Positions 5,049-30,931 of a stretch of DNA of 64,000 nt are shown in pieces; positions within the stretch are counted from its first letter, which is position 1; every line of letters starts with the position of its first letter. The notes beneath the pieces are model-generated. The model did not search any database, was not told the origin of the DNA, and was given only the letters and a program-made list of their open reading frames with translations. This DNA comes from Minisyncoccota bacterium. Its GTDB lineage: Bacteria > Patescibacteriota > Microgenomatia > PFEM01 > JAFGMK01. Made by a program: the position numbers and the translations under genes. The DNA is taken from NCBI GenBank assembly GCA_016927565.1, contig JAFGMK010000008.1, positions 1,115 to 65,114 of the forward strand. Reading direction: 5' to 3'.

Positions 5049-5097
5049 GTATATCAAACTATATCAGCCTAAAAATAAGACACTCATTTTTTTATAC

Positions 5098-5192
5098 TGT
5101 CTCATTTGTCTCACTTCGCTTCGCTCAGTGTAAACATTTACGCTTGAGTTATAATGACTAAAAGGTTCAAGACCACGCTGCTCAGCACACCT
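5098..5192 (+). repeat. conserved ~95-nt non-coding element, copy A (contains a TATAAT-like box), immediately 5' of a GNAT gene
   Basis: Near-identical blocks shared with 13750-13862: 'CATTTGTCTCACTTCG', 'CTTCGCTCAGTGT', 'AACATTTA', 'GAGTTATAATGACTAAAAGGT', 'AGACC..CTGCTCA'. Confidence 0.55.
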
Positions 5193-5228
5193 TCGGATTT
5201 CTTTGGAATTTTGCTACAATTTTTATAT

Positions 5229-5744
5229 ATGATATCGATCCGACAAGAAAAACCAGAGGATTATCAAAGTATTTATAGTATCAACAAGTTTGCGTTTGAT
5301 AGTGAAGTTGAGGCAAAATTAGTCAATAATCTGCGTAAAACTAAAGGGTTTATTCCTAATCTTTCTCTAGTTGCTGTAAAAGATAGTAGGGTAGTTGGTC
5401 ATATCTTATTTAGTGTTATCCATATTCAAACGGATACTAATTATGTTCCAGCTTTAGCCCTGGCACCAATGGCAGTATTACCAGAATACCAAAGACAAGG
5501 AATCGGGTCACAGCTTATTCGTGAGGGTATAAAAAAATGCAAAGAATTAGGGCATAAAATAATTATTATTGTTGGACACCCCAATTATTACCCCCGTTTT
5601 GGATTTTCTCCTGCAGTTGAAAAAGGATTGAAACTACCTTTTGAAGCACCAGAGGAAGCATTTATGGTGTATGAGATTATTCCTCAAGCGCTTAAAGACA
5701 TAACAGGGATGGTGGTATATCCACCTGAATTTGCGGAAGTATAG
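5229..5744 (+). CDS. GNAT family N-acetyltransferase
   Basis: About 171 aa from ATG 5229 (MISIRQ...). Motif A 'QRQGIGSQLIREGI' (Q/R-x-x-G-x-G/A) is typical of GNAT acetyl-CoA binding. The longer ORF from 5154 would read through the conserved upstream element. Confidence 0.75.
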   Translation: MISIRQEKPEDYQSIYSINKFAFDSEVEAKLVNNLRKTKGFIPNLSLVAVKDSRVVGHILFSVIHIQTDTNYVPALALAPMAVLPEYQRQGIGSQLIREGIKKCKELGHKIIIIVGHPNYYPRFGFSPAVEKGLKLPFEAPEEAFMVYEIIPQALKDITGMVVYPPEFAEV

Positions 5745-5754
5745 CTTATAAAAT

Positions 5755-5785
5755 AAGTTCGAATAGCGTCTATGTTTGCCAGCGC
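5755..5785 (+). repeat. conserved ~30-nt 3' flank of GNAT gene, copy A
   Basis: 'GTTCGAATAGCGTCTATGTTTGCCAGCG' matches 14492-14520 ('ATTTCGAATAGCGCTTATACTCGCCAGCC'). Both lie 14-26 nt after the GNAT stop codons. Confidence 0.45.
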
Positions 5786-5866
5786 GATCTTTGAGGTTCT
5801 GGGCAACCGAGGTTTCTAAGTAGCTTGATTTAGCTTGTAAGAAGCAATTGTTCTTTTAAGCGTTTT

Positions 5867-6337: not shown

Positions 6338-6812
6338 ACAACCTTCAAGGTACTTTTTCCCTTTGTACCTCGGTATAAAGTCTACTAGAATGGATATGTG
6401 CCCGGCAGAAAAACGATTATAGCAACTGGTCAAATTTATCATCTCTTTAATCGCGGTAGTTCTTTTCAACCAGTTTTTTAAATGTTTTTGATTGCCGCCG
6501 CTTTTTAAAAACGATTAATTTTTACCGTTTTTCTTCTCGCTCAATTAAAAAAGAAAGAACTAATTTCAATCTTTTCTTTCTGTTTAATGCCTAACCATTA
6601 TCATCTCCCGGTCAGACAAGAAAAAGAAAACGCTATTTCAAAATTTATGTCTCAAGTCCAAAATAGCGATACTAAATATTCAATATTAAGAGAAAAAAAT
6701 AAAAAAGACTATCAAGAATTCATTTTTAATCAGGCAGACTATCAACGAAAATTAGAAAAGATTAAACACTTAACTTGGGAAAACTAAACCCCAAGGTATA
6801 CCCTGAAGGTTG
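6338..6812 (+). mobile_element. degraded HUH (RAYT/IS200-like, COG1943-type) transposase element with flanking inverted repeats
   Basis: Inverted repeats 'ACAACCTTCAAGGTA' (6338-6352) and 'TACCCTGAAGGTTGT' (6798-6812). The internal gene is broken (see pseudogene feature). Confidence 0.45.
6421..6787 (+). pseudogene. HUH tyrosine transposase (RAYT-like) pseudogene, frameshifted
   Basis: Frame fragment 'ATGQIYHLFNRGSSFQPVF' (G-x-YH-x-x-x-RG motif) ends in a stop. About 50 codons downstream a second frame carries 'NHYHLPV' (HxH motif) and runs as a 66-aa ORF (6587-6787). The spacing matches intact RAYTs, but the frames are interrupted by stops. Confidence 0.5.
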
Positions 6813-6870: not shown

Positions 6871-7578
6871 ATGAAATCAAAAATTTATATAGGCAGAGAC
6901 CAAAAGAATGATAAAGTGTTTTTGGATCTAAACAAGGAAAAAATTTATAGCATTCTCCTTGCGGGTCTGTCCGGTTCCGGAAAAAGCATCTTTCACTTTA
7001 GCCTTTATCACCAGCTTCTTCAACAAAATACTCCAGTTGAGCTTGGCTTTGTGTTCTTTGATATGACTAAAGTAGATTTTGCTAAGTTTCCCTATCCAGC
7101 CTATTTGTATAAACCTATAATTAAGTCTTTAGATGAAGCTTTAGATTGTTTTGAAGAGCTTGGAAAAGAAAGTAAGCTGCGGTGTCAAGGCAAGGTCGAC
7201 CGCCGAAGATCCATTCTAATCCACATCGAAGAGTGTGATCTAATGTATTATGACCGAAAACGGTTTGAGCAGGCTTGGATTGATATTGCCTCTGGTAAAG
7301 ATAAAAACAACATCTATGTAGTATTTTCTTCCAGTCGCTGCTGCCCTGAGGTCTTCACCAGAACTATTCTTAATAATGTAGACCTTAAGATACTTTTTTC
7401 TCCTGGAGGGTCAGGTTTTGATAAGTCTTTATACGACGAATGTTCGCTTTATTTGTTTAGTAAGAGATTTAAAAATACCCCTAGAGAGTGGCAAAGAGTG
7501 TTGATGACAGATCAGAGAGAAATTTTGTGCCAAGGTTATTCGGAAGAAGAAGTTAAGGAAGTTAAAAGCATATTTTAA
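6871..7578 (+). CDS. compact FtsK/SpoIIIE-like P-loop ATPase
   Basis: 235 aa. Walker A 'LLAGLSGSGKS', Walker B-like 'ILIHIEECDLMY', 'YVVFSSSR' (equivalent to FtsK 'VLATQRPS'), and an order of motifs colinear with the FtsK motor domain. Confidence 0.6.
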   Translation: MKSKIYIGRDQKNDKVFLDLNKEKIYSILLAGLSGSGKSIFHFSLYHQLLQQNTPVELGFVFFDMTKVDFAKFPYPAYLYKPIIKSLDEALDCFEELGKESKLRCQGKVDRRRSILIHIEECDLMYYDRKRFEQAWIDIASGKDKNNIYVVFSSSRCCPEVFTRTILNNVDLKILFSPGGSGFDKSLYDECSLYLFSKRFKNTPREWQRVLMTDQREILCQGYSEEEVKEVKSIF

Positions 7579-11029: not shown

Positions 11030-12295
11030 TCACGGGCGTAATTTTTTATAATAAATTCCGCATTTCTCTGAATCCTTAGTATTCTTATATCTCTCATCGT
11101 CCCAAACAAGATGAACATTATTTTCTGAATCAATCGCTATTAAAGGAAATATAGAACCGTATTTAGCATTGGTTACTCTAATATCATCGTTTAGAGCCTT
11201 TCCGTTATTATCAAGCTTCTTGTAATAAATCTCGTAGTTAGTCGCCCCTGACTTAAATTCCTCTTCGTTTCTATCATCTCTCCACGCCAGGCAGACATTA
11301 TCGTTTGAATCAATCGCAATCGAAGGATCTCCGCAATAAATCTTTGCCTCAACTAATTTAATCTCGCCCGTCAAATCAACTCCGTCCTTGCCTAGTTTTT
11401 TATAGTAAATATCCCATTTTTTGGGTCTTCTATTATCCTGCCAGGCAATATGAACATTATCGCTGGAATCAAGAGCAATTGAAGGGCTTACGGCAGAAAA
11501 TCCTTCCGATATTTTGATGTCATCAGTCAGGCTATCTCCATTCTGATCCTGCTTTTTATAATAGATAACATCGTCGTTTCCCCAAACGAGGTGGATATTA
11601 TTGTTTGAATCAATGGCAATTAAAGGCCTTTCGCTGCTCCTCCCACCAGCCTTTCCTATTCTGATTTCACCACTTAAGTCGTTACCATTATTATCCAACT
11701 TCTTGTAGCAAGCCTCCTCACTGGAATTATCCACCCAAGCAATGTAAACATTATCATGTGAGTTAACTGCAATAGAAGGTGGTTGTATAATACTGGTGGT
11801 AGTTGCCACCTTGATCTCGCTACCCAGGCTATTGCCGTTATTGTCCAGCTTCTTGTAGTAAATTCCCATTACCTCATTTGACAAACCTTGCCACGCGATA
11901 TGGATATTGGTATTTGGATCAATCACCATTGAAATGTCATAGGCCTTATCGGTTGTGACTCTAACATTATCCACTAAGGGATTGCCGTTATTATCTAATT
12001 TTTTGTAATAAACTCCTGCCAGTTCGGGAATACTATTTGTTGCCACTATGTAAACATTGTCATTTGAGTCAAGTGCCATTGAGAATTCGCTTGAAAACCC
12101 ACCGCCGGTTAATACTCCAACCTCACCAGAAGGATGTACATTAGCTATCTGTTGCTTAATAGAGCCAATCACTCCTGGTTCTTCCGCGGCGGGAGTTTTG
12201 TCTGATTTTCGCACGAATCTAACTGCTAAAAAAGCTCCGGTTATCAAAATTATTAAAAATATCAATATCCCTAAATTTTTGGTATTTTTTCCCAT
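11030..12295 (-). CDS. secreted/anchored tandem-repeat protein (about 8 copies of a ~48-aa repeat; beta-propeller-like)
   Basis: 421 aa with an N-terminal hydrophobic anchor. Repeat units end in 'YYKKLDNNGN.L...I.V' and begin 'IA(I/L)DS.DN.HI.W' (YYKKLDNNGNPL, YYKKLDNNGNSL, YKKLDNNGNDL, YYKKQDQNGDSL, YYKKLGKDGVDL, YYKKLDNNGKAL, YYKKL). Confidence 0.6.
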   Translation of the reverse strand: MGKNTKNLGILIFLIILITGAFLAVRFVRKSDKTPAAEEPGVIGSIKQQIANVHPSGEVGVLTGGGFSSEFSMALDSNDNVYIVATNSIPELAGVYYKKLDNNGNPLVDNVRVTTDKAYDISMVIDPNTNIHIAWQGLSNEVMGIYYKKLDNNGNSLGSEIKVATTTSIIQPPSIAVNSHDNVYIAWVDNSSEEACYKKLDNNGNDLSGEIRIGKAGGRSSERPLIAIDSNNNIHLVWGNDDVIYYKKQDQNGDSLTDDIKISEGFSAVSPSIALDSSDNVHIAWQDNRRPKKWDIYYKKLGKDGVDLTGEIKLVEAKIYCGDPSIAIDSNDNVCLAWRDDRNEEEFKSGATNYEIYYKKLDNNGKALNDDIRVTNAKYGSIFPLIAIDSENNVHLVWDDERYKNTKDSEKCGIYYKKLRP

Positions 12296-13600: not shown

Positions 13601-13749
13601 ATTTTGAATTCACCCAGCGAAGAAAAGCTATTGTGATAAACGAAAAGCCAATTTCGGAGACTAGGAGGATTTTAATCAATCTATTGGCCTCTCGAAGTGA
13701 TGTATATCAAAGTATATCACTCAAAAAACGAGATATTCCCTTTTTATAG

Positions 13750-13862
13750 TGTTCCATTTGTCTCACTTCGACTTCGCTCAGTGTTATAACATTTAGCCTC
13801 AGAATAAAACATTGGGAATTGTGAGTTATAATGACTAAAAGGTCCCAGACCGATCTGCTCAA
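13750..13862 (+). repeat. conserved non-coding element, copy B (same as 5098-5192, with a ~21-nt insertion), upstream of the second GNAT gene
   Basis: Shares 'CATTTGTCTCACTTCG(A)CTTCGCTCAGTGT', 'AACATTTA', 'GAGTTATAATGACTAAAAGGTCCCAGACC', 'TCTGCTCA' with copy A. Confidence 0.55.
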
Positions 13863-14072
13863 AAAAAGGCAGAAGAATTTTTTGTTCGTTATTAAAACCT
13901 AACGCAACCAATGAAGATTAAAGAGGCGCATAAATATATTAAAGTACACTGGAAAGTTTAGGGGAGTAGTGTAAAGAGTCTAGCTTAGTCAATTTTTCAG
14001 AAGCCGGGCTGAGGTTACGACGTTAAAAGTTATAAGGGCAATTGGACACCAGACCATGAAGATCGGCACTAT

Positions 14073-14468
14073 ATGATAAGAAAAGCCAAAGCATCTGATT
14101 CCAAAAAAATTGAGTCCCTAATGAAATCGGTTAGGGGTTTTTGGGATAAATCGTGGCGGAATAATGTCATTCAATCGGGAATAAAAGCTTCAAACGGCTT
14201 ATCTTTTGTTTATGAGGAAAATGGCAACATCTTAGGTTTTATTTGCGCACACGATTTGGGTTTCAGAGGCTATTTGAGCGAATTAATCGTGGCTTCCGGA
14301 AAACAACATCAAGGAATAGGGAAAAAACTGCTAGTAAAAGTAGAAAGCGAACTTAATAAAAGAGGATGCTGTGTTTTAATCTCTGATGTTTGGAAGGGCG
14401 CTAAAAGGTTTTATGAAAACTCCGGCTGGAGTGAGCCTGATGTGGTCTTGCTCAGGAAAAAATTATAG
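14073..14468 (+). CDS. GNAT family N-acetyltransferase
   Basis: 131 aa. 'QHQGIGKKLLVKVE' acetyl-CoA-binding motif A. Not similar in sequence to the GNAT at 5229. Confidence 0.75.
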   Translation: MIRKAKASDSKKIESLMKSVRGFWDKSWRNNVIQSGIKASNGLSFVYEENGNILGFICAHDLGFRGYLSELIVASGKQHQGIGKKLLVKVESELNKRGCCVLISDVWKGAKRFYENSGWSEPDVVLLRKKL

Positions 14469-14491
14469 TCATCTTTACAATTTAAAAAATA

Positions 14492-14520
14492 ATTTCGAAT
14501 AGCGCTTATACTCGCCAGCC
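14492..14520 (+). repeat. conserved 3' flank of GNAT gene, copy B
   Basis: 'TTTCGAATAGCGCTTATACTCGCCAGCC' matches the flank at 5755-5785. Confidence 0.45.
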
Positions 14521-14796
14521 ACATTGGGCGCCCCGGTGGCCCAGCTGCCTCGATTGCGCTCGTGATACTTGCTTTAAACTGCTGATTTATCACTCAAACA
14601 TTCGGGCCCTACTTTTGGTATCCCGGACATTCTGATTTTTTAGTTAGCGCAAATCACTCCTGCGAGATGGTCGCGAAGTCTATAATGGATTCCAGAATTC
14701 GGACACCGGCGTAAGATACCATTGATATGGTAAGTAATTGTCGGAGAATTTGCTAATGGACTAATAGTCATACTATGATGTATAAAAGAAAAGGGT

Positions 14797-17643
14797 ATGG
14801 ATTTAACCAAGAGGAAAATAATACTTTTAATCATCTTCTTAACAAGTTTTTTTACCTTTGTCGAATCTGTTTCCGCTCAAGCTTCTTCTGATTGGTATAT
14901 GGCCGGGGCTAATCAGCAAAGGACCAGCTGGGTTTCTGAAGAGGTAAAGGGATTTTTATCACCCCGCTGGTATGTGAATTTTCACCCCTGGATCAACACC
15001 AAAATTCAGCCGATTGGTTCTCACGGTTTGATTTATGTTTCTACTGCAAGAGGGCTTTACGCTCTGAATGCTAACAACGGGAATGTCGCTTGGGTTTATC
15101 CGACCGAGATGGCGTTAGGCCATTCACCGACAATTGTGGGCGATGTCTTGTATGTCGGCGGTTATGATAAGAAGATCCATGCGATCAGAGCGAATCCTAA
15201 TACCAGTTCTTTGCCTGTCGACAGTAAAACCGGCTACCGGATCAATAATCAGATTGTTTGGATTTTTAATGGCGGAGAGGCGGGTTTTGAAACTAATCCC
15301 CTGGTAGTTGACGGGTCAGTTTATGCGGGCAATCGTGATGGCTATTTTTATGCTTTGAATGCTTCAAACGGAAACTTGAAATGGAAGTATAAAACTAATG
15401 GTCCGATTCTCTTTTCTGCCGCCTATAAAGATGGGGTGATTTACCTGGCCTCAAACGATGCTCATGCGTATGCTTTGAATACTAACGGAAGCTTAAAATG
15501 GAAATCTGCCAAGCTGCCAATTGCCGGATTTTATTCATTTTGGCCGGTAGTTTATACTGACCATCAAAGCGGCCGGGATTATGTTATTTTTACTTCTGCC
15601 CACAATTACTTGGCCGACGGTTTCCTGCGAATCAACGAAGTTAAATTTGATTATACCGAATTAGTTGAAGTTTTTCACGCCCACGGTTGTACTCAAGAAA
15701 ATCAGCTTTGCAGTCCCCTGCGTAATGAGCCGTATCCCGGTGGTTGGGTTAGCGGCACGCAAACTATGGACTTGGGTTTCGTCAGTGATTATTTTACTCA
15801 AAAGCCTTACAGGAGAACTTATTTGGTTCTTCGTGTAAGTGACGGGGCTGATTATACTGCAGATGGATACCGGCAACCGCCGTTTCTTTGGGGTGGCAGT
15901 ACTCATAGCGGCAGCAAGTATCCTCCAATGGTGGGATCAGATAATGTCTTATACCAATATGCTAACTATCTGGGTGATCAATATATTGCTGAGGGCCGGA
16001 CGGTAGGCTGGAAATTTGGGACTTCAATTGTCAGTAGAATTGCCCAGTCAAGTAGCGCTATTGACGAACTTTATTCGGTCGCTGGCGGCGGTGATTTGTC
16101 TTATTTTCAACATTGGGAAAGCGAGGCGGGTGCCTTCAATTATGTCAATGGCGGAGAAGAAATCTACTATCAATATGGTGATAATTTTCCCTCAGGGTGC
16201 GGCAGAATGTATCCGGATTGGGTTGCTTATGGCAAGGAGAATGAAGATGGAGCGATTAATGGAGTTTATGGCGGCCCGCAAAGTCCGCCGATTCCTTACA
16301 ATGGGAAGGTTTATTTATTTAATAGCAATTGTCTTTTGGCTCTGGAGAGAGGCGGTTCGGCCAACTCCCCTCTAGCGACGATTCAGCCGGTTGAGAGTGA
16401 GCAGGACGGGCTTGTATTTAATGATGCCGTGCTTGAACAAAAACTCACAAATGAAATTCAAAAAATGATTGATTCCGGTCACTTGAGGCCGGGCTATCAT
16501 GGTTCTACTCAGGGCGACTGGATGATGGCAAGTGAGCATGACTATCTTAATCATTATTTTTCCAACCCCGGGGAAACTATCTATACCCTGCTTTTAGCTT
16601 TGGATGTTTTAAGAAGCAAGCCGATTGCCAATAATCTTAGGAATTACATTCAGCAGGAATATAATGCTTATCCGCCCCATAGTATTGCCCACATCGGCTG
16701 GAATTCCGGAGCGAAAAGAGAAGCCTATGATACGCTTCCCAATGTTCAATCGGCGATGAATAATTTTGGATCTTTGAGTTCTACAGGTAATCATTGGAGG
16801 CTTCCTCCGTTTTCAGTGTATGCTCTTTGGTTATACGCCAGAGAATTCGGCAATGCCAATCAAATTTTAAATCAGGTTCAGAATAAGCTTGATTCACCTC
16901 CGACCAATGACTTTGCAAACTATCCTTTTGTCCACAATGCTTATATTGCCGGCTACATCGGTTATTGCAAGCTGGAAGAACTAGCCAACACGGGCAGCAA
17001 TAATCAGGGAATTCCCCAAGGATGTTCGAAGCAAAGCACTCTCAATAATCTTTTAAGCTCAAGAGTCAGCGGTTTTGATAAGAATAATCATCTTACAGGA
17101 TGGCACGATTATTTTCGCGCCTTCACCGGTTCAAGAAATTTTATGTTCATGGTGCCGGAGCTGGCAGATTATATGAATCAGCATATTCTTGGCAAAGTCA
17201 ATGAAGCTGTTGATGAGTATAATTACTATATTCCCGGCTGGTTTGTTTCTAAATATGACAGTACTTTTGAAGAGGGTATGATTCAGTACCTTTATGATTA
17301 TCCCGCTCTTTTTCAGGCCAAAGCCTACATTCTTAAACAATCTCGAGAGGAATTAAGCAAGTATCTGGATGTCCCGGCATTTGAAAGAGGAGATCTCTTC
17401 TATATTCAAAACCTCATAGCGGCGATTAAAGCAAGTTCATCGTCACCGCCAGTCACTCCTACCCCCAGTTCATGTTCAGCCAATGTCAACAATGACGGTT
17501 CGGTCGGAATGCTTGATTTTCTTCAAGTAATTGGCGTTTGGGGAAACAGGGGAGCCCGACTGGTTGAAGATATCAATAATGACGGCAAAGTGAACATAAT
17601 TGATTTGGGAAGAGTGATAAAAGAGTGGGGGAGCAATTGTTAA
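14797..17643 (+). CDS. secreted PQQ-repeat beta-propeller protein with C-terminal dockerin-like module
   Basis: 948 aa with a signal peptide. PQQ-type repeats ('YALNANNGNVAWVY', 'YALNASNGNLKWKY', 'YALNTNGSLKWKS'). C-terminal pair of Ca-loop motifs 'NVNNDGSVGMLD' and 'DINNDGKVNIID' followed by 'W G' helices (dockerin type I pattern). Paralog of 27977-30931. Confidence 0.7.
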   Translation: MDLTKRKIILLIIFLTSFFTFVESVSAQASSDWYMAGANQQRTSWVSEEVKGFLSPRWYVNFHPWINTKIQPIGSHGLIYVSTARGLYALNANNGNVAWVYPTEMALGHSPTIVGDVLYVGGYDKKIHAIRANPNTSSLPVDSKTGYRINNQIVWIFNGGEAGFETNPLVVDGSVYAGNRDGYFYALNASNGNLKWKYKTNGPILFSAAYKDGVIYLASNDAHAYALNTNGSLKWKSAKLPIAGFYSFWPVVYTDHQSGRDYVIFTSAHNYLADGFLRINEVKFDYTELVEVFHAHGCTQENQLCSPLRNEPYPGGWVSGTQTMDLGFVSDYFTQKPYRRTYLVLRVSDGADYTADGYRQPPFLWGGSTHSGSKYPPMVGSDNVLYQYANYLGDQYIAEGRTVGWKFGTSIVSRIAQSSSAIDELYSVAGGGDLSYFQHWESEAGAFNYVNGGEEIYYQYGDNFPSGCGRMYPDWVAYGKENEDGAINGVYGGPQSPPIPYNGKVYLFNSNCLLALERGGSANSPLATIQPVESEQDGLVFNDAVLEQKLTNEIQKMIDSGHLRPGYHGSTQGDWMMASEHDYLNHYFSNPGETIYTLLLALDVLRSKPIANNLRNYIQQEYNAYPPHSIAHIGWNSGAKREAYDTLPNVQSAMNNFGSLSSTGNHWRLPPFSVYALWLYAREFGNANQILNQVQNKLDSPPTNDFANYPFVHNAYIAGYIGYCKLEELANTGSNNQGIPQGCSKQSTLNNLLSSRVSGFDKNNHLTGWHDYFRAFTGSRNFMFMVPELADYMNQHILGKVNEAVDEYNYYIPGWFVSKYDSTFEEGMIQYLYDYPALFQAKAYILKQSREELSKYLDVPAFERGDLFYIQNLIAAIKASSSSPPVTPTPSSCSANVNNDGSVGMLDFLQVIGVWGNRGARLVEDINNDGKVNIIDLGRVIKEWGSNC

Positions 17644-23081: not shown

Positions 23082-23580
23082 TCAATATAAATACTTGTCT
23101 AGTTTAACTTGAAAAGCTTTTAAATCATAGTAGATCTCATCGTTTCTTTTAATAAATTCTTCCTGGATAGTTCGGTTAAATCTCTCGATAAAGGCATTAA
23201 CTTTAACCAGTCGAGGATAGATAAACTTATGCTTGATCTTTTCTTCTTTTGATAATTTTGCCAATGGTGGTTAATTCAATGGTGGGTAGCCCCAGCCTCT
23301 TAGCATAAGCATCAAGAAAGGGCTTGATGATGTTTTTTCCGACATTGCCGTATTCCTTTCTCATCTGTTTGATAAACTCGACTAAGCGCCAATCTGTTTG
23401 CATCCTCCGAACATGCTCTGGTCGGGTTGACCTGGGAACCAAGCTGAAAGTCTTTTTTCCTGATTTTTCATACCTTTTCTTCCAGTCATAAAAAGTGCTT
23501 TTTTTGACCCGGAAAGCATCCAGGGTAGAGGCCAGGCCATATTTATAGTAGTGATCGAACATGGAGTCTGAAACGAGCAA
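23082..23580 (-). pseudogene. IS481/IS3-like DDE transposase remnant (N-terminal HTH part plus C-terminal tail; catalytic core deleted)
   Basis: 117-aa ORF with 'KSTFYDWKKRYEKSGKK' (transposase HTH helper pattern). Downstream 60-aa ORF has 'ERFNRTIQEEF', the hallmark C-terminal motif of rve integrase cores. The DDE region between them is missing. Confidence 0.5.
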
Positions 23581-27976: not shown

Positions 27977-30931
27977 TTACTGACAATTCTTTCCCCATTC
28001 CCTTATCACTTCTCCCAGGTCAATCCCGTTAACTTTGCGATCATTGTTAATGTCTTCGGCCAACCCCGACCCTGTTTTTCCCCAGGCGCCGATTACTTGG
28101 AGAAAATCAGCCAATCCTACCGACCCGTCGTTATTGACGTTGGCCAAACAAAGAGCGGGAGTGGGAGTAACAACCGGTCCTGAAGAATTTGCTTCAATCG
28201 TTGCCACTAGGTTTTGGATATAAAAAAGGTCTCCTTTTTCGAACCCGGGGACATCCAGATATTTAACCAGCTCCTCGTAAGATTCTTTAAGAATCAAAGC
28301 TTTAGCTTGGAAAACAGCGGGAACATCAAGCAGGTGCTGCAGACCGGATTCGTTGTTGCCGTCATCAAATTTGGACACAAACCAGCCCGGAGTAACATAG
28401 TTATATTCATCAACCGCTTCCTGGACTTTTGACAATGCATGTTGGTTCAGATAATCTCCCAGTTCGGGGACAAGATACAAGAAATTTCTGGCAGTATTCA
28501 TAACCAAAAGATAAACAGAATCCTGAGGGCCGCCACCGCCAAACTCATTGTCTTTTGAAAAATTTCCGATTCTTGCCTGCAATAAGCTGTTTAAGGTTGA
28601 TTGTCTGGAGCAGCTCTGGGGAATTCCCTGATTATTACTTCCGGTATTAACCAGTTCTTCAAGCTTGCAATAGCCAATATATCCGGCAATGTAAGCGTTG
28701 TGCATATAAGGGTAATCGGTGAGAAGATTATTGGAAGGCGGGGATTCAAGTTTGTTTTTAATCTGGTTAAAGACGGTGCTTGCTCCGCCAAATTCCTCTG
28801 CATATTTCCATAATGCATAAAAGTTATATTGAGGAAAGTCCCAAGACCAATCCGACACGTTTATAGCAGGTTCATAGTAATAACTGGAAGTTTTGGATCC
28901 GTAGCTGTTCATTCCCAGTTGAATCTCCGGCAAAGTCTCAAAAGCCTCTCTTTTGGAGCCGGTTGCCCAGCCGATTTGAGCAATCTGGTAGGGAGGGTAG
29001 TCTTCATATTCCTGTTGGATGTATGAGCGGGCCTGCTGTTGCAGTGAGGGAGATAAATGAGGCAGAGTCCTGATTAGAGTTTCTATGGTTTCGGCTGGAT
29101 TATGGAAATAGTGGATAAGGTTACGCGGACCCATACTGGGGTCAGGTATCCCGCCGCTGTGATATCCGGGCCGCAAATGACCGGCTTCAATCATTTTTTG
29201 CACCTCCGTCTCTAATTTTTCTTTTAGCCGGAAAACGGCAATTGGCGGTTGGTTTTGCCGGACATTGACTGGCCGGGCATTCGGCAGGGGATTGTGAGCG
29301 TTCCCGTTCGGCCCAAAGGCCAATAAGCCGTTATAAACATGGTAAAAAACTTTTCCTTTATAAGGAATTGGCGGGTTTTTAGGTTCACCGTAGATTCTGT
29401 TTTGACTTCTGTGTGTTTCGCTGGATGAATATCCCGGAGCAAGAGAATACAGATTATAAGTATAATAATTCCATACTCTTTCTCCGGAAGTAGTCGATAT
29501 ATCGATTGCTCCAGCTTCGCTTTCCCAATGCTGGAAGTAAATCAAATTTCCTCCGGCAGAGAAGGTGTGGAATTCATCATTGGGCATTCCGCTTTTCAGA
29601 TTGCTGATATATTTTGTCCCAAACTTCCAACCGACCACATGTCCCCGTCCGATCCATGGGTCAGAGATATAGTTGTTAAACTGATATAAAACGCCGTCGC
29701 TGCCGATCACCGGCGGATATCTATTGCCTCCATGGCTCCACCCCCCCCAGAGAAAAGGGGCATAATCGGGCAATCCGTCTGAGTCTGCGTCAAAAGTAAC
29801 TTCATTCCCGTTGGCTCTGTTTATGACAAAATAAGTTCTTTTCCACGGCTTATGATCGTTTCTTTCCAGGCCGGCGGGGTCGGAATCGGCTTCCTGGGCA
29901 GTTGGCTGCTCGTAATGATCGACTATTCTTTGGACATCGACAGTTTGTGTCCCGCTAACCCAATCGCCCGGTTGGGTTCCGTTTCCTTGAGGGTAACTGA
30001 CTAATTGCCCGTTGGGGATATTATTTGCGGTAAAAACTTCTCTAAGTTCAGTACCGTCAAATTTACTTCTAAGATCACTATATTGCAGCGTTAAGTCGGC
30101 AAAGTCTATCAGATAATTGTGGCTCCCGCCAAAAATGACATAATTTTGGTAAATTACCGGCCAGAAAGAATGAAATCCTGCTCCGGGTAATTTTGGTGAT
30201 TTCCAGACTCTGGCTCCGGTAGTTGCATTTAAAGCATAAGCATGAGCATCATTAGCGGCAAAGTAGATGACATTATCTGCGTAAGCCGCAGAAAAGAGAA
30301 TCGGTCCGCCGGTTTGGTGCGACCAGAGCAAACTGCCGGTTGTGCTGTTTAAGGCATACATTTTGCCGTCGCGGTTTCCGACATAGACGATATTATTAAC
30401 CACCAGGGGATTAGTTTCGAAACCTGCTTCAGCTTGATCAAAGATCCAAATGATCTTGTTGTTAATGCGATAGCCGGTTTCGCTGTCTACTGGCAATGAA
30501 GAAAGGCTGGGTTTGGCTTCAATGGCGTGAACCTTTTTGTCATATCCTCCCACATACAGCCTGCCCTCAACAACGGTGGGTGATTGGCCGAGAGGCAGTT
30601 CGGTGGGATAAACCCAGGCGATATCGCCATTACTGGCATTCAGAGCGTAAAGCCCTCTTGCTGTAGACAGATAAACCAAATCATTAGCGGCGATTACCTG
30701 TATCTTCCCATTAACATAGGGATTAATTGGCCGATACCAAACAGGGGATAATGTGCCTCTCACCTCTTCGGCTGTCCAGGATATTCTTTGCGGATTGGCG
30801 CCGGACATGGCCCAATTCTGTTCCCACCAGGAAGAACTTTGAGCTGCGGCTTGATTGGAAAAAGCGACAAACAGAACGGCTGTTATTAAACAAATTCTAA
30901 TTTTCATAGGGCCTAACTCCCGCAACCCCAA
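27977..30931 (-). CDS. secreted PQQ-repeat beta-propeller protein with C-terminal dockerin-like module (paralog of 14797-17643)
   Basis: 984 aa with a signal peptide. 'YALNASNGDIAWVYPTE', 'YALNSTTGSLLWSHQT', 'YALNATTGARVWKS'. C-terminal 'NVNNDGSVGLAD...DINNDRKVNGID'. Confidence 0.7.
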   Translation of the reverse strand: MGLRELGPMKIRICLITAVLFVAFSNQAAAQSSSWWEQNWAMSGANPQRISWTAEEVRGTLSPVWYRPINPYVNGKIQVIAANDLVYLSTARGLYALNASNGDIAWVYPTELPLGQSPTVVEGRLYVGGYDKKVHAIEAKPSLSSLPVDSETGYRINNKIIWIFDQAEAGFETNPLVVNNIVYVGNRDGKMYALNSTTGSLLWSHQTGGPILFSAAYADNVIYFAANDAHAYALNATTGARVWKSPKLPGAGFHSFWPVIYQNYVIFGGSHNYLIDFADLTLQYSDLRSKFDGTELREVFTANNIPNGQLVSYPQGNGTQPGDWVSGTQTVDVQRIVDHYEQPTAQEADSDPAGLERNDHKPWKRTYFVINRANGNEVTFDADSDGLPDYAPFLWGGWSHGGNRYPPVIGSDGVLYQFNNYISDPWIGRGHVVGWKFGTKYISNLKSGMPNDEFHTFSAGGNLIYFQHWESEAGAIDISTTSGERVWNYYTYNLYSLAPGYSSSETHRSQNRIYGEPKNPPIPYKGKVFYHVYNGLLAFGPNGNAHNPLPNARPVNVRQNQPPIAVFRLKEKLETEVQKMIEAGHLRPGYHSGGIPDPSMGPRNLIHYFHNPAETIETLIRTLPHLSPSLQQQARSYIQQEYEDYPPYQIAQIGWATGSKREAFETLPEIQLGMNSYGSKTSSYYYEPAINVSDWSWDFPQYNFYALWKYAEEFGGASTVFNQIKNKLESPPSNNLLTDYPYMHNAYIAGYIGYCKLEELVNTGSNNQGIPQSCSRQSTLNSLLQARIGNFSKDNEFGGGGPQDSVYLLVMNTARNFLYLVPELGDYLNQHALSKVQEAVDEYNYVTPGWFVSKFDDGNNESGLQHLLDVPAVFQAKALILKESYEELVKYLDVPGFEKGDLFYIQNLVATIEANSSGPVVTPTPALCLANVNNDGSVGLADFLQVIGAWGKTGSGLAEDINNDRKVNGIDLGEVIREWGKNCQ

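Follow-up and report, generated by a model that had tools for sequence, protein, structure and literature searches.

Integron attC sites are imperfect palindromes of the form R''-L''...L'-R' with RYYYAAC and GTTRRRY cores, in which structure rather than sequence is conserved. Only complete integrons require intI and attI; clusters of attC sites without an integrase are termed CALINs. The dif sites of Xer recombination consist of XerC and XerD arms around a 6-bp spacer. To our knowledge, little is established about how Patescibacteria (the Candidate Phyla Radiation, CPR), which have very small genomes, gain and exchange accessory genes. The pdif modules of Acinetobacter plasmids carry 28-bp XerC/XerD sites in alternating orientation (PMC6449649), and the tycheposons of Prochlorococcus are tRNA-targeting integrative elements or genomic islands (10.1101/2020.12.28.424599). 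We report here on two acetyltransferase genes, GNAT-A and GNAT-B, in a 64,000-nt stretch of contig JAFGMK010000008.1 from a Minisyncoccota bacterium (hereafter the window), and on the elements E1, S, T and E2 that surround them. On the best reading of the data, each of these genes is a separate cassette of a modular CPR system.

What was observed directly is the modular anatomy of this system, with its sharp junctions and arrays, and the fact that the same sites surround different cargo while the same cargo turns up between different sites. E1 is a non-coding upstream element, S and T are sites of 35-45 nt that end in CAGC(C/A), and E2 is a sequence of ~150 nt that natively trails tRNA-Gln. 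We lean, if modestly, towards the view that the cassettes are inserted by site-specific recombination at tRNA-Gln-like sites, with an enzyme that would act in trans.

Shared flanks of the two genes

GNAT-A and GNAT-B lie 8.7 kb apart, and both products match Pfam GNAT families (Table 1). Each protein is 100% identical to one from a Candidatus Pacebacteria metagenome-assembled genome, where the GNAT-B counterpart is called from an internal Met. BLASTP gave no alignment between the two, even at E ≤ 100. This agrees with the first-pass annotation of the window, which had seen no obvious similarity between the proteins, the same 5' element before both genes and a shared 3' flank of ~30 nt placed 14-26 nt past their stop codons. 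The 5' elements are identical at 114/137 aligned positions (83%), with a 22-nt insertion in copy B, and the similarity breaks off after CTGCTCA, where the S site ends. The 3' flanks are the T sites; they align without gaps at 28/34 identical positions. When the two 120-nt downstream regions were shuffled 300 times, the maximum was 21 and 28 was never reached, so the shared flanks are real rather than a product of chance. The TTCGAATAGCG core of the flank begins 14 nt past the stop in copy A and 26 nt past it in copy B.

Two details of the annotation require adjustment. The 3' flank itself is real, but the pattern written for it was slightly out of register, and a literal search with it returned nothing. 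Likewise, the 5' element is indeed shared, but it does not directly bracket both genes: between E1-B and GNAT-B stand ~160 nt and a further, decayed S site (S'). No ORF and no homology were detected in this spacer, which is possibly what remains of a decayed cassette. S' is ~72% identical to the S consensus by eye and falls under the nhmmer threshold. Its junction with GNAT-B is the same as that in a 76%-identical GNAT-B homologue in comparison locus L076, which reads ...GCTCAGCA ctaa ATG (comparison loci are given by L-numbers).

Beyond the 3' flank of copy B, similarity to E2 runs on for ~130 nt. The two GNAT genes are the only ones among ~57 in the window to carry S or T sites. A tRNA scan of the window found none, and the 3.4 kb of contig sequence beyond the window contains no further sites.

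Sites and cargo in related loci

Homologues of both genes recur in other gene neighbourhoods together with sites of the same families. GNAT-A homologues of 74-76% identity are present in three loci with different neighbourhoods (L084, L086, L090). In 3/3 of them a T site lies 6 nt past the stop codon, a fixed placement which indicates that the site travels with the gene. The ~40-nt leader of GNAT-A is clearly kept in L084 and L090 and partly in L086, and the left-hand site is different in each: E1-S in L086, an E1 fragment in L084 and a T site in L090.

GNAT-B homologues of 66-85% identity occupy five different gene neighbourhoods (L076, L077, L078, L081, L094). Four of them begin 2-4 nt past ..CAGC(A/C), and the fifth, in L094, begins 4 nt past ..CAGTA. 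The genes are framed by a T-like site and S in L077, by a T-like site and T in L081 and L094, and by a preceding E1-S in L076. The 3' site is kept in 3/5 of these loci; L078 has a terminator-like hairpin only and L076 is unclear. In L094, which holds the closest orthologue (85% identity), the spacer after the stop and the T site are as in the window apart from a 25-nt insertion, and divergence sets in directly past CCAGC.

The cargo is not limited to acetyltransferases. Behind E1-S in other contigs, inspection of ORFs identified a third GNAT, NUDIX, HAD, DHH, GIY-YIG and CYTH genes, glycosyltransferases, a phosphoribosyltransferase-like gene, and toxin-antitoxin pairs of the Phd/RelE and MNT/HEPN types. 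One MNT-HEPN module (84% identity across 634 nt) occurs in two settings: tRNA-Gln and E1-S flank it in L053, and in L050 it is enclosed by E1-S and S-E2. Empty junctions, with E1-S directly against E2, are found twice in L055 and once in L050. In L068, one gene is present twice, and the sequence common to its copies begins only at CAGCA.

The consensus of the S sites is (GA)GTTATAAGGACTAAAAGGTCCTAGACCGnCCTGCTCAGC(C/A), a type also written ..GGTCCTAGACCGnCCTGCTCAGC[C/A]. They occur without E1 as well, in 45 distinct copies among the fetched loci, and often lie directly past or overlapping a stop codon, just ahead of the next gene. The T type reads AAAATAGGTTCGAAC..N..GGTTCGCAAC / ..GCCAGC. A T profile, built from nine copies, matched after other genes and in arrays (L090, L086, L084). 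Of 16 T sites, 15 stand behind a co-oriented gene, at distances of -6 to 49 nt, in a count that still includes some duplicate loci. The window's own two T sites are more alike than either is to the T sites of the orthologous cassettes. Many loci carry several sites in series: nhmmer located six S/T sites within 7 kb of L071 and five each in L044 and L086. In each of the ~22 loci with at least two S/T sites, all sites are on one strand. Co-oriented arrays with one or two, mostly co-oriented, small ORFs between the sites are present in L031, L049, L050, L071, L044, L086 and L090. We also considered whether the 3' flank could be a minus-strand coding fragment, given codon-like differences among three copies; the candidate was rejected as the L047 copy is intergenic and the similarity spans only ~30 nt.

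These comparisons bear on several claims made from the window alone. Cassette-like exchange had been proposed there, and it gains from other cargo in the same flanks, the same cargo in other flanks, the arrays and the empty sites; template switching, named as one possible route, found no support. The search for additional cargo between the same flanks yielded many unrelated genes behind E1-S, and the 3' similarity is reproduced after other genes and at GNAT-A and GNAT-B homologues. The cargo had been described as one functional class, which no longer holds, as toxin-antitoxin, NUDIX, HAD, GIY-YIG and glycosyltransferase genes are included. The flanks had been described as one conserved pair; they do recur, but in Patescibacteria contigs and as three distinct repeat families, namely E1, S/T and E2.

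Genes for GIY-YIG nucleases of ~90 aa (UPF0213-like) are present in seven independent loci (L031, L035/L071, L052, L053, L060, L068, L076). They lie directly behind E1-S in L052, L053 and L060 and just ahead of an S site in L031; in the remaining loci they have other positions within the arrays. None was found in the window. These genes may be ordinary cargo or participants in mobility.

The upstream element E1

Across loci, E1 is a non-coding element of 140-250 nt. It starts with (ATGAGACA)-CCTTTTTATA(C/G)-TGTCTCAT-TTGTCTCA and continues with an optional CTTCG..CTCAG module, of which there can be more than one, then TTTAGCC, frequently GTGAGACAAT, and finally a conserved 3' block. Each E1 holds four TGTCTCA/TGAGACA copies, including inverted ones, which by their sequence resemble protein-binding sites. 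E1-A contains a TATATCA-N3-TATATCA repeat, TTTTTATAC, a TGTCTCA TT TGTCTCA block and a CACTTCG..CTCAGTG module. By hand count, the gene after E1 is on the same strand in ~24 cases vs 9.

A 20-base core of E1 matches 28 species-representative genomes from many phyla, mostly sharing just a motif of ~25 nt; the extended E1 is present in 3/28 of these. A pattern specific to the extended E1 retrieved 46 metagenome loci. When viral sequences were scanned with two E1 motifs, one had no matches and the other had a single, core-only match. Assemblies tend to branch or end at the element. In one pair of assemblies, five contigs have an identical E1 followed by five different sequences. The contigs L042, L055 and L073 of a single assembly each begin 123 nt before the point of divergence at the 3' end of S, as expected of a branch node in the assembly graph. 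A Logan contig from the window's own sample (L093, SRR13394437) ends ~69 nt past the dCMP-deaminase stop, within E1-A, which is consistent with E1 being an assembly-breaking repeat.

Smaller units are visible within E1. The motif TCTCACTTCG(N)CTTCGCTCAGTG, 20-25 nt long, lies inside E1 at window positions 5108-5130 and 13760-13783 and in loci L001-L028. The 28 genomes with this motif include Bacteroidota, Chloroflexota, Cyanobacteria, Streptomyces, Campylobacterota and others, and it is also present in one viral contig; we estimate that ~2 matches would be expected by chance. In these genomes, it is usually located within tandem or hairpin repeats of the form CCTTCG..GCTCAGG. Modules of this form sit inserted in E1 copies and in one T site (L081), as if they were tiny independent insertion units. 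In addition, just ahead of the 5' block of E1 in L036 and L038/L047, the TTTTTATA box of E1 is broken by a 37-nt insertion (atcgcRgatta..gcaagagcga). This insertion is flanked by duplicated TATA and resembles a very small insertion with target duplication.

Two loci with CPR-type E1/S/T elements are labelled otherwise in GTDB, L023 as 'Bathyarchaeia' and L022 as 'Gammaproteobacteria'. An identical copy of the L023 region is contained in L064, a metagenome contig of 847 kb, roughly as long as an entire CPR genome. Both bins may carry wrong taxonomic labels.

Link to tRNA-Gln

The sites resemble the 3' end of tRNA-Gln, and the sequence behind them resembles what follows that tRNA. E2, which in copy B extends ~130 nt past the T site, recurs behind S or T sites in L050, L051, L055, L067 and L074. 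In L071/L035, E2 stands directly behind a real tRNA-Gln(CTG), and in L022 the start of E2 stands behind tRNA-Gln. The S site of copy A aligns with the tRNA-Gln end from the T-arm to the CCA. When such tRNA-Gln ends were put into one multiple alignment with the S and T sites, all three fell into register, with an invariant CAGC and homologous E2 behind each. The segment lengths of S equal those of the tRNA end (7+5+7+1+3), and T is ~5 nt longer. Moreover, three independent loci (L022, L053, L071) have tRNA-Gln(CTG) on the same strand as E1 and 0.7-2 kb upstream of it; by our estimate, based on ~45 tRNA genes per Mb, chance would yield a few hundredths of a locus. At permissive E-values, examined in the B region and three loci, the S/T sites are not scored as tRNA by Rfam. 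Stand-alone S sites are without any conserved 5' acceptor strand.

DNA sites or RNA

Rfam found nothing at the elements, neither across the window at the gathering threshold nor in the B region and three loci at up to E ≤ 10. The two candidate helices of S are paired in 66.0% of cells vs 65.8% after shuffling, and their covariation score is no better than the control. The folding stability of E1 compared with shuffled sequence gave z-scores of -0.08 to -1.2 on both strands. These values, which cover pairing in S and folding of E1, give no sign of the conserved secondary structure for which the first-pass annotation had advised a test. A sigma-70 consensus promoter was not found in the window's E1 copies, and an inverted-repeat search over both units revealed no pair common to A and B at the unit ends. 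Because Rfam matches, covariation in S, unusual folding stability in E1, a consensus promoter and terminal inverted repeats are all lacking here, E1, S and T are more likely to be sequence-specific DNA sites than RNA. Three candidate identities were rejected on the same results: a structured RNA (riboswitch or small RNA), E1 as a promoter, and a miniature inverted-repeat transposable element (MITE).

Proposed mechanism and alternatives

A cassette comprises its own short leader, one or two ORFs and a 3'-terminal S or T site of 35-45 nt. It adjoins another such site, often the 3' end of E1, and cassettes are also found ahead of E2. Under the proposed mechanism, the exchange of DNA at or near the CAGC end of the sites would be the work of a recombinase whose gene is located elsewhere in the genome. 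tRNA-Gln would be the original attachment site and E1-S a portable landing pad. Exchange at CAGC ends with such a landing pad would lead co-oriented cassettes to pile up one behind another, so that they accumulate in series. Whether this amounts to an undescribed integron-like cassette system in CPR, with sites that mimic the tRNA-Gln 3' end, E1 as portable landing pad and a recombinase that is encoded elsewhere or belongs to the host, is a more tentative proposal, possible though short of probable. In the literature searched on integrons, gene cassettes, genomic islands and repeats in CPR/Patescibacteria, we found no description of E1, S, T or E2.

Several observations weigh against insertion of cassettes by site-specific recombination. 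Scans for tyrosine and serine recombinase motifs, crude as they are, covered the 64-kb window and ~600 kb of loci and found none linked to the sites; the tyrosine-recombinase box II motif in particular was absent from both. Presence/absence polymorphism between near-identical strains was not observed. Some of the segments between sites hold several genes or, in a minority, opposite-strand genes, and the T site of L047 is antisense between two genes. In the window, the left site of each cassette is S and the right site T, which is not a simple duplicated core. The sample is also biased, as most comparison loci came from an exact E1 pattern; loci anchored on proteins are free of this bias but few in number. 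ORF calls for the site statistics relied on a simple longest-ORF heuristic. Since no linked recombinase and no strain polymorphism were seen, site-specific recombination, an enzyme acting in trans and the role of E1 are what we infer rather than observe.

The absence of an evident integrase had already been remarked upon from the window, and Pfam scans of the window ORFs near both copies found none either. The sole match of the recombinase scans is a large serine recombinase in L038/L047 (~8420-10520 in L047), where it is encoded next to a split tRNA-Ser. There, the 5' part of E1 with a TGGTAAAAT box is followed by a 5' fragment of tRNA-Ser(TGA) cut at the T-loop. A complete tRNA-Ser(TGA) lies ~130 nt past this fragment, followed on the other strand by the gene for the 432-aa recombinase. 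Judged from its sequence, the arrangement looks like an element integrated into tRNA-Ser.

Other explanations account for part of the data. E1, S, T and E2 could be non-autonomous repeats of the MITE or REP/REPIN type (repetitive extragenic palindromes and their paired forms) that spread around resident GNAT genes, perhaps via an IS200/Y1 transposase like the REP-associated tyrosine transposases (RAYTs). The elements are multi-copy and dispersed, assemblies break at them, the inverted TGTCTCA/TGAGACA copies in E1 could form hairpins, and small CCTTCG..GCTCAGG modules are clearly inserted into E1 and a T site; in addition, there is a degraded Y1-transposase-like gene ~0.6 kb past cassette A. 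On the opposing side, T sites stand 6 nt past the stop in 3/3 GNAT-A homologue loci, the spacer behind the GNAT-B orthologue is conserved, cargo follows the preceding site after 2-4 nt in four or five independent contexts, and the sites keep to one strand per locus. As the units also have no shared terminal inverted repeats, S shows no hairpin signal and the Y1 match is below the Pfam threshold, we consider spreading repeats unlikely. Exchange by homologous recombination, with E1 and E2 as portable homology arms, or homing through breaks made by GIY-YIG proteins and repair from a cassette-bearing copy, would explain why no recombinase is linked. E1 (140-250 nt) and E2 (~150 nt) are long enough for RecA-dependent exchange, the ~90-aa GIY-YIG genes are found in arrays, and the closeness of the window's two T sites to each other, rather than to those of orthologous cassettes, is like gene conversion. 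Against this, the junctions are sharp at the same CAGC position instead of spread across the arms, many cassettes are bounded by sites of 35-45 nt alone without E1 or E2, the window has no GIY-YIG gene, and proteins of ~90 aa look, by their size, too short for a separate DNA-binding domain. Homologous exchange or homing is thus decidedly improbable.

A third alternative is that the elements act as RNA: E1 as a small RNA or a shared 5' leader and promoter, S and T as tRNA-like 3' elements for processing by RNase P or RNase Z, termination or stability, and the shared flanks as a sign of common regulation of accessory genes. The same-strand preference behind E1, S/T sites directly past stop codons, and an S site that ends like an acceptor strand, then G and CCA, all suit this idea, as do the overlap of the copy B S site with a terminator-like hairpin and the extended -10-like box TGGTAAAAT that precedes S in some E1 forms and the tRNA-Ser 5' fragment in L038. 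The lack of any Rfam family even at E ≤ 10, the S covariation and E1 folding at control levels, the window E1 copies without a sigma-70 consensus and the stand-alone S sites without a 5' acceptor strand speak against it, as does the presence of sites at only two GNATs among ~57 window genes; we regard it as very improbable. Plain segmental duplication of one GNAT locus followed by coding divergence has next to no chance of being correct. It would fit two GNAT-fold acetyltransferases with similar flanks, but it is refuted by the empty BLASTP comparison, which contrasts with non-coding flanks that are 82-83% identical, and by the separate families of close homologues to which the two genes belong; in addition, the same flanks surround unrelated genes in other genomes. 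The first-pass annotation had likewise set simple duplication aside. What makes the spreading of repeats, homologous exchange or homing, and RNA function each a poorer fit than cassettes is that the sites keep fixed positions, the junctions at CAGC are sharp and genes are inherited with their own 3' site.

Features of the window and neighbouring genes

The features of both cassettes are listed in Table 1.

Table 1. Cassette-associated features in the window, with positions counted from its first nucleotide.
Feature	Position	Strand	Description
E1-A	5049..5187	+	Non-coding; starts directly past the dCMP-deaminase stop; S site at its 3' end
S site of copy A	5146..5187	+	GAGTTATAATGACTAAAAGGTTCAAGACCACGCTGCTCAGCA; nhmmer E=2e-10 against a profile of 45 S sites
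GNAT-A cassette leader	5188..5228	+	CACCTTCGGATTTCTTTGGAATTTTGCTACAATTTTTATAT
GNAT-A	5229-5744	+	171 aa, YhbS-like acetyltransferase; Pfam Acetyltransf_9/_1/_7
T site of copy A	5750..5783	+	AAAATAAGTTCGAATAGCGTCTATGTTTGCCAGC; 28/34 identical to the T site of copy B; nhmmer E=5e-7
Weak partial E2-like remnant	5784..5866	+	Low-level alignment to E2 copies; uncertain call; precedes the next gene
E1-B	13702..13864	+	S site at 13823-13864; terminator-like hairpin at 13854-13873
Spacer between S and S'	13865..14028	+	Non-coding, ~160 nt
S' (decayed S site)	14029..14068	+	GTTATAAGGGCAATTGGACACCAGACCATGAAGATCGGCA, then ctat, then the GNAT-B ATG
GNAT-B	14073-14468	+	131 aa, acetyltransferase; Pfam Acetyltransf_1/_7/_10
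T site of copy B	14486..14519	+	AAAATAATTTCGAATAGCGCTTATACTCGCCAGC
E2-B	14520..14650, perhaps to ~14690	+	nhmmer matches to L074, L055, L067, L050; aligns with the L071 and L022 tRNA-Gln trailers

Several neighbouring genes are of types associated with mobility. FtsK/SpoIIIE-type ATPases are common in mobile elements, and a 235-aa protein with such a domain is encoded at 6871-7578, in a poorly conserved 8.6-kb stretch between the cassettes. The Y1-transposase-like gene lies at 6395-6787 and is degraded by stops or frameshifts; the Y1_Tnp match, on the ORF at 6587-6787, has E=0.007, below the family cut-off. A 117-aa ORF at 23227-23580 with transposase-type helix-turn-helix domains (HTH_29/28/23/32) is probably the N-terminal fragment of an insertion sequence transposase.

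Repeats of other kinds are also present. Paralogous proteins of 948 aa and 984 aa are encoded at 14797-17643 and 27977-30931, in inverted orientation and ~10 kb apart. In Pfam, the 948-aa copy has a PQQ/beta-propeller and a C-terminal dockerin, and the DNA of its paralogue is 72-80% complementary over several stretches. The gene at 11030-12295, for a 421-aa protein, has at least 5 internal DNA repeats every 150-180 nt, which suggests a repeat-domain protein in which the motif YYKKLDNNG recurs.

Comparison with known systems

If true, the cassette system would give CPR bacteria one route to gain and exchange accessory genes, through short tRNA-like sites and without a linked integrase. Their tiny genomes would then have dedicated shuffling of GNATs, toxin-antitoxin pairs, NUDIX and GIY-YIG genes, and recurrent assembly breaks in CPR metagenomes would be explained. 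The theme of integrons, dif modules and tRNA islands would gain a new type of site and reach into a new major lineage. E1, S, T and E2 are concrete motifs that can be counted in complete genomes and reads, so that mobility and the enzyme are directly testable.

Two of the known systems share some features with these cassettes and differ in others. Like REP/REPIN-RAYT systems and MITEs, the elements are short multi-copy intergenic repeats, with assembly breaks, inverted repeats in E1 and a degraded Y1-transposase-like gene nearby; unlike them, the units lack terminal inverted repeats and target duplications, S is without a hairpin signal, the sites keep strict positions relative to stop and start codons, and they are inherited with particular genes. 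The pdif modules (PMC6449649) are likewise discrete accessory modules, including toxin-antitoxin modules, with short conserved sites; they encode no recombinase themselves, and their movement is attributed to a host enzyme acting in trans. S and T differ from pdif sites in being chromosomal and all in the same orientation; inspection against the dif consensus, with no formal search run, showed no dif-like sequence in them.

The resemblance to integron gene cassettes was noted at the outset, together with the absence of an attC consensus. Integron cassettes and CALINs likewise carry short accessory genes (GNATs, toxin-antitoxin, NUDIX) that are often almost leaderless, the gene usually has its own 3' element resembling a recombination site, and co-oriented arrays and ORF-less units occur. 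As in integrons, sites are more similar within a lineage than between orthologous cassettes. However, direct reading of the S/T consensus found neither the attC cores nor the R''/L''/L'/R' palindrome, and the system is therefore not an integron. S and T are conserved in sequence, across many metagenomes, rather than in structure, and they look like the 3' end of a tRNA. The crude motif scan showed neither intI nor any other tyrosine recombinase next to an array, the platform E1 is a dispersed non-coding element instead of an attI beside intI, and some segments between sites contain several genes or genes on the opposite strand.

The closest published analogues that we found are the pdif modules and tRNA-targeted islands such as tycheposons (10.1101/2020.12.28.424599). 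In such islands the attachment sites come from the 3' part of a tRNA and partial tRNAs recur across variable regions, as may be the case for S and T; later insertions push earlier ones deeper, and the cargo is accessory. An intact tRNA, here tRNA-Gln, heads some of the arrays. The units described here differ in being single genes of 0.4-1.5 kb that bring along neither an integrase nor replication or excision genes. Both window copies, like many other arrays, are far from tRNA genes and have a degenerate tRNA-like site borne by E1 instead, and the sites that flank one cassette can be of two types, S and T. With no attC structure and no integrase in its units, the system falls outside both definitions, and on the best reading it works like an integron or a tRNA-targeted island.

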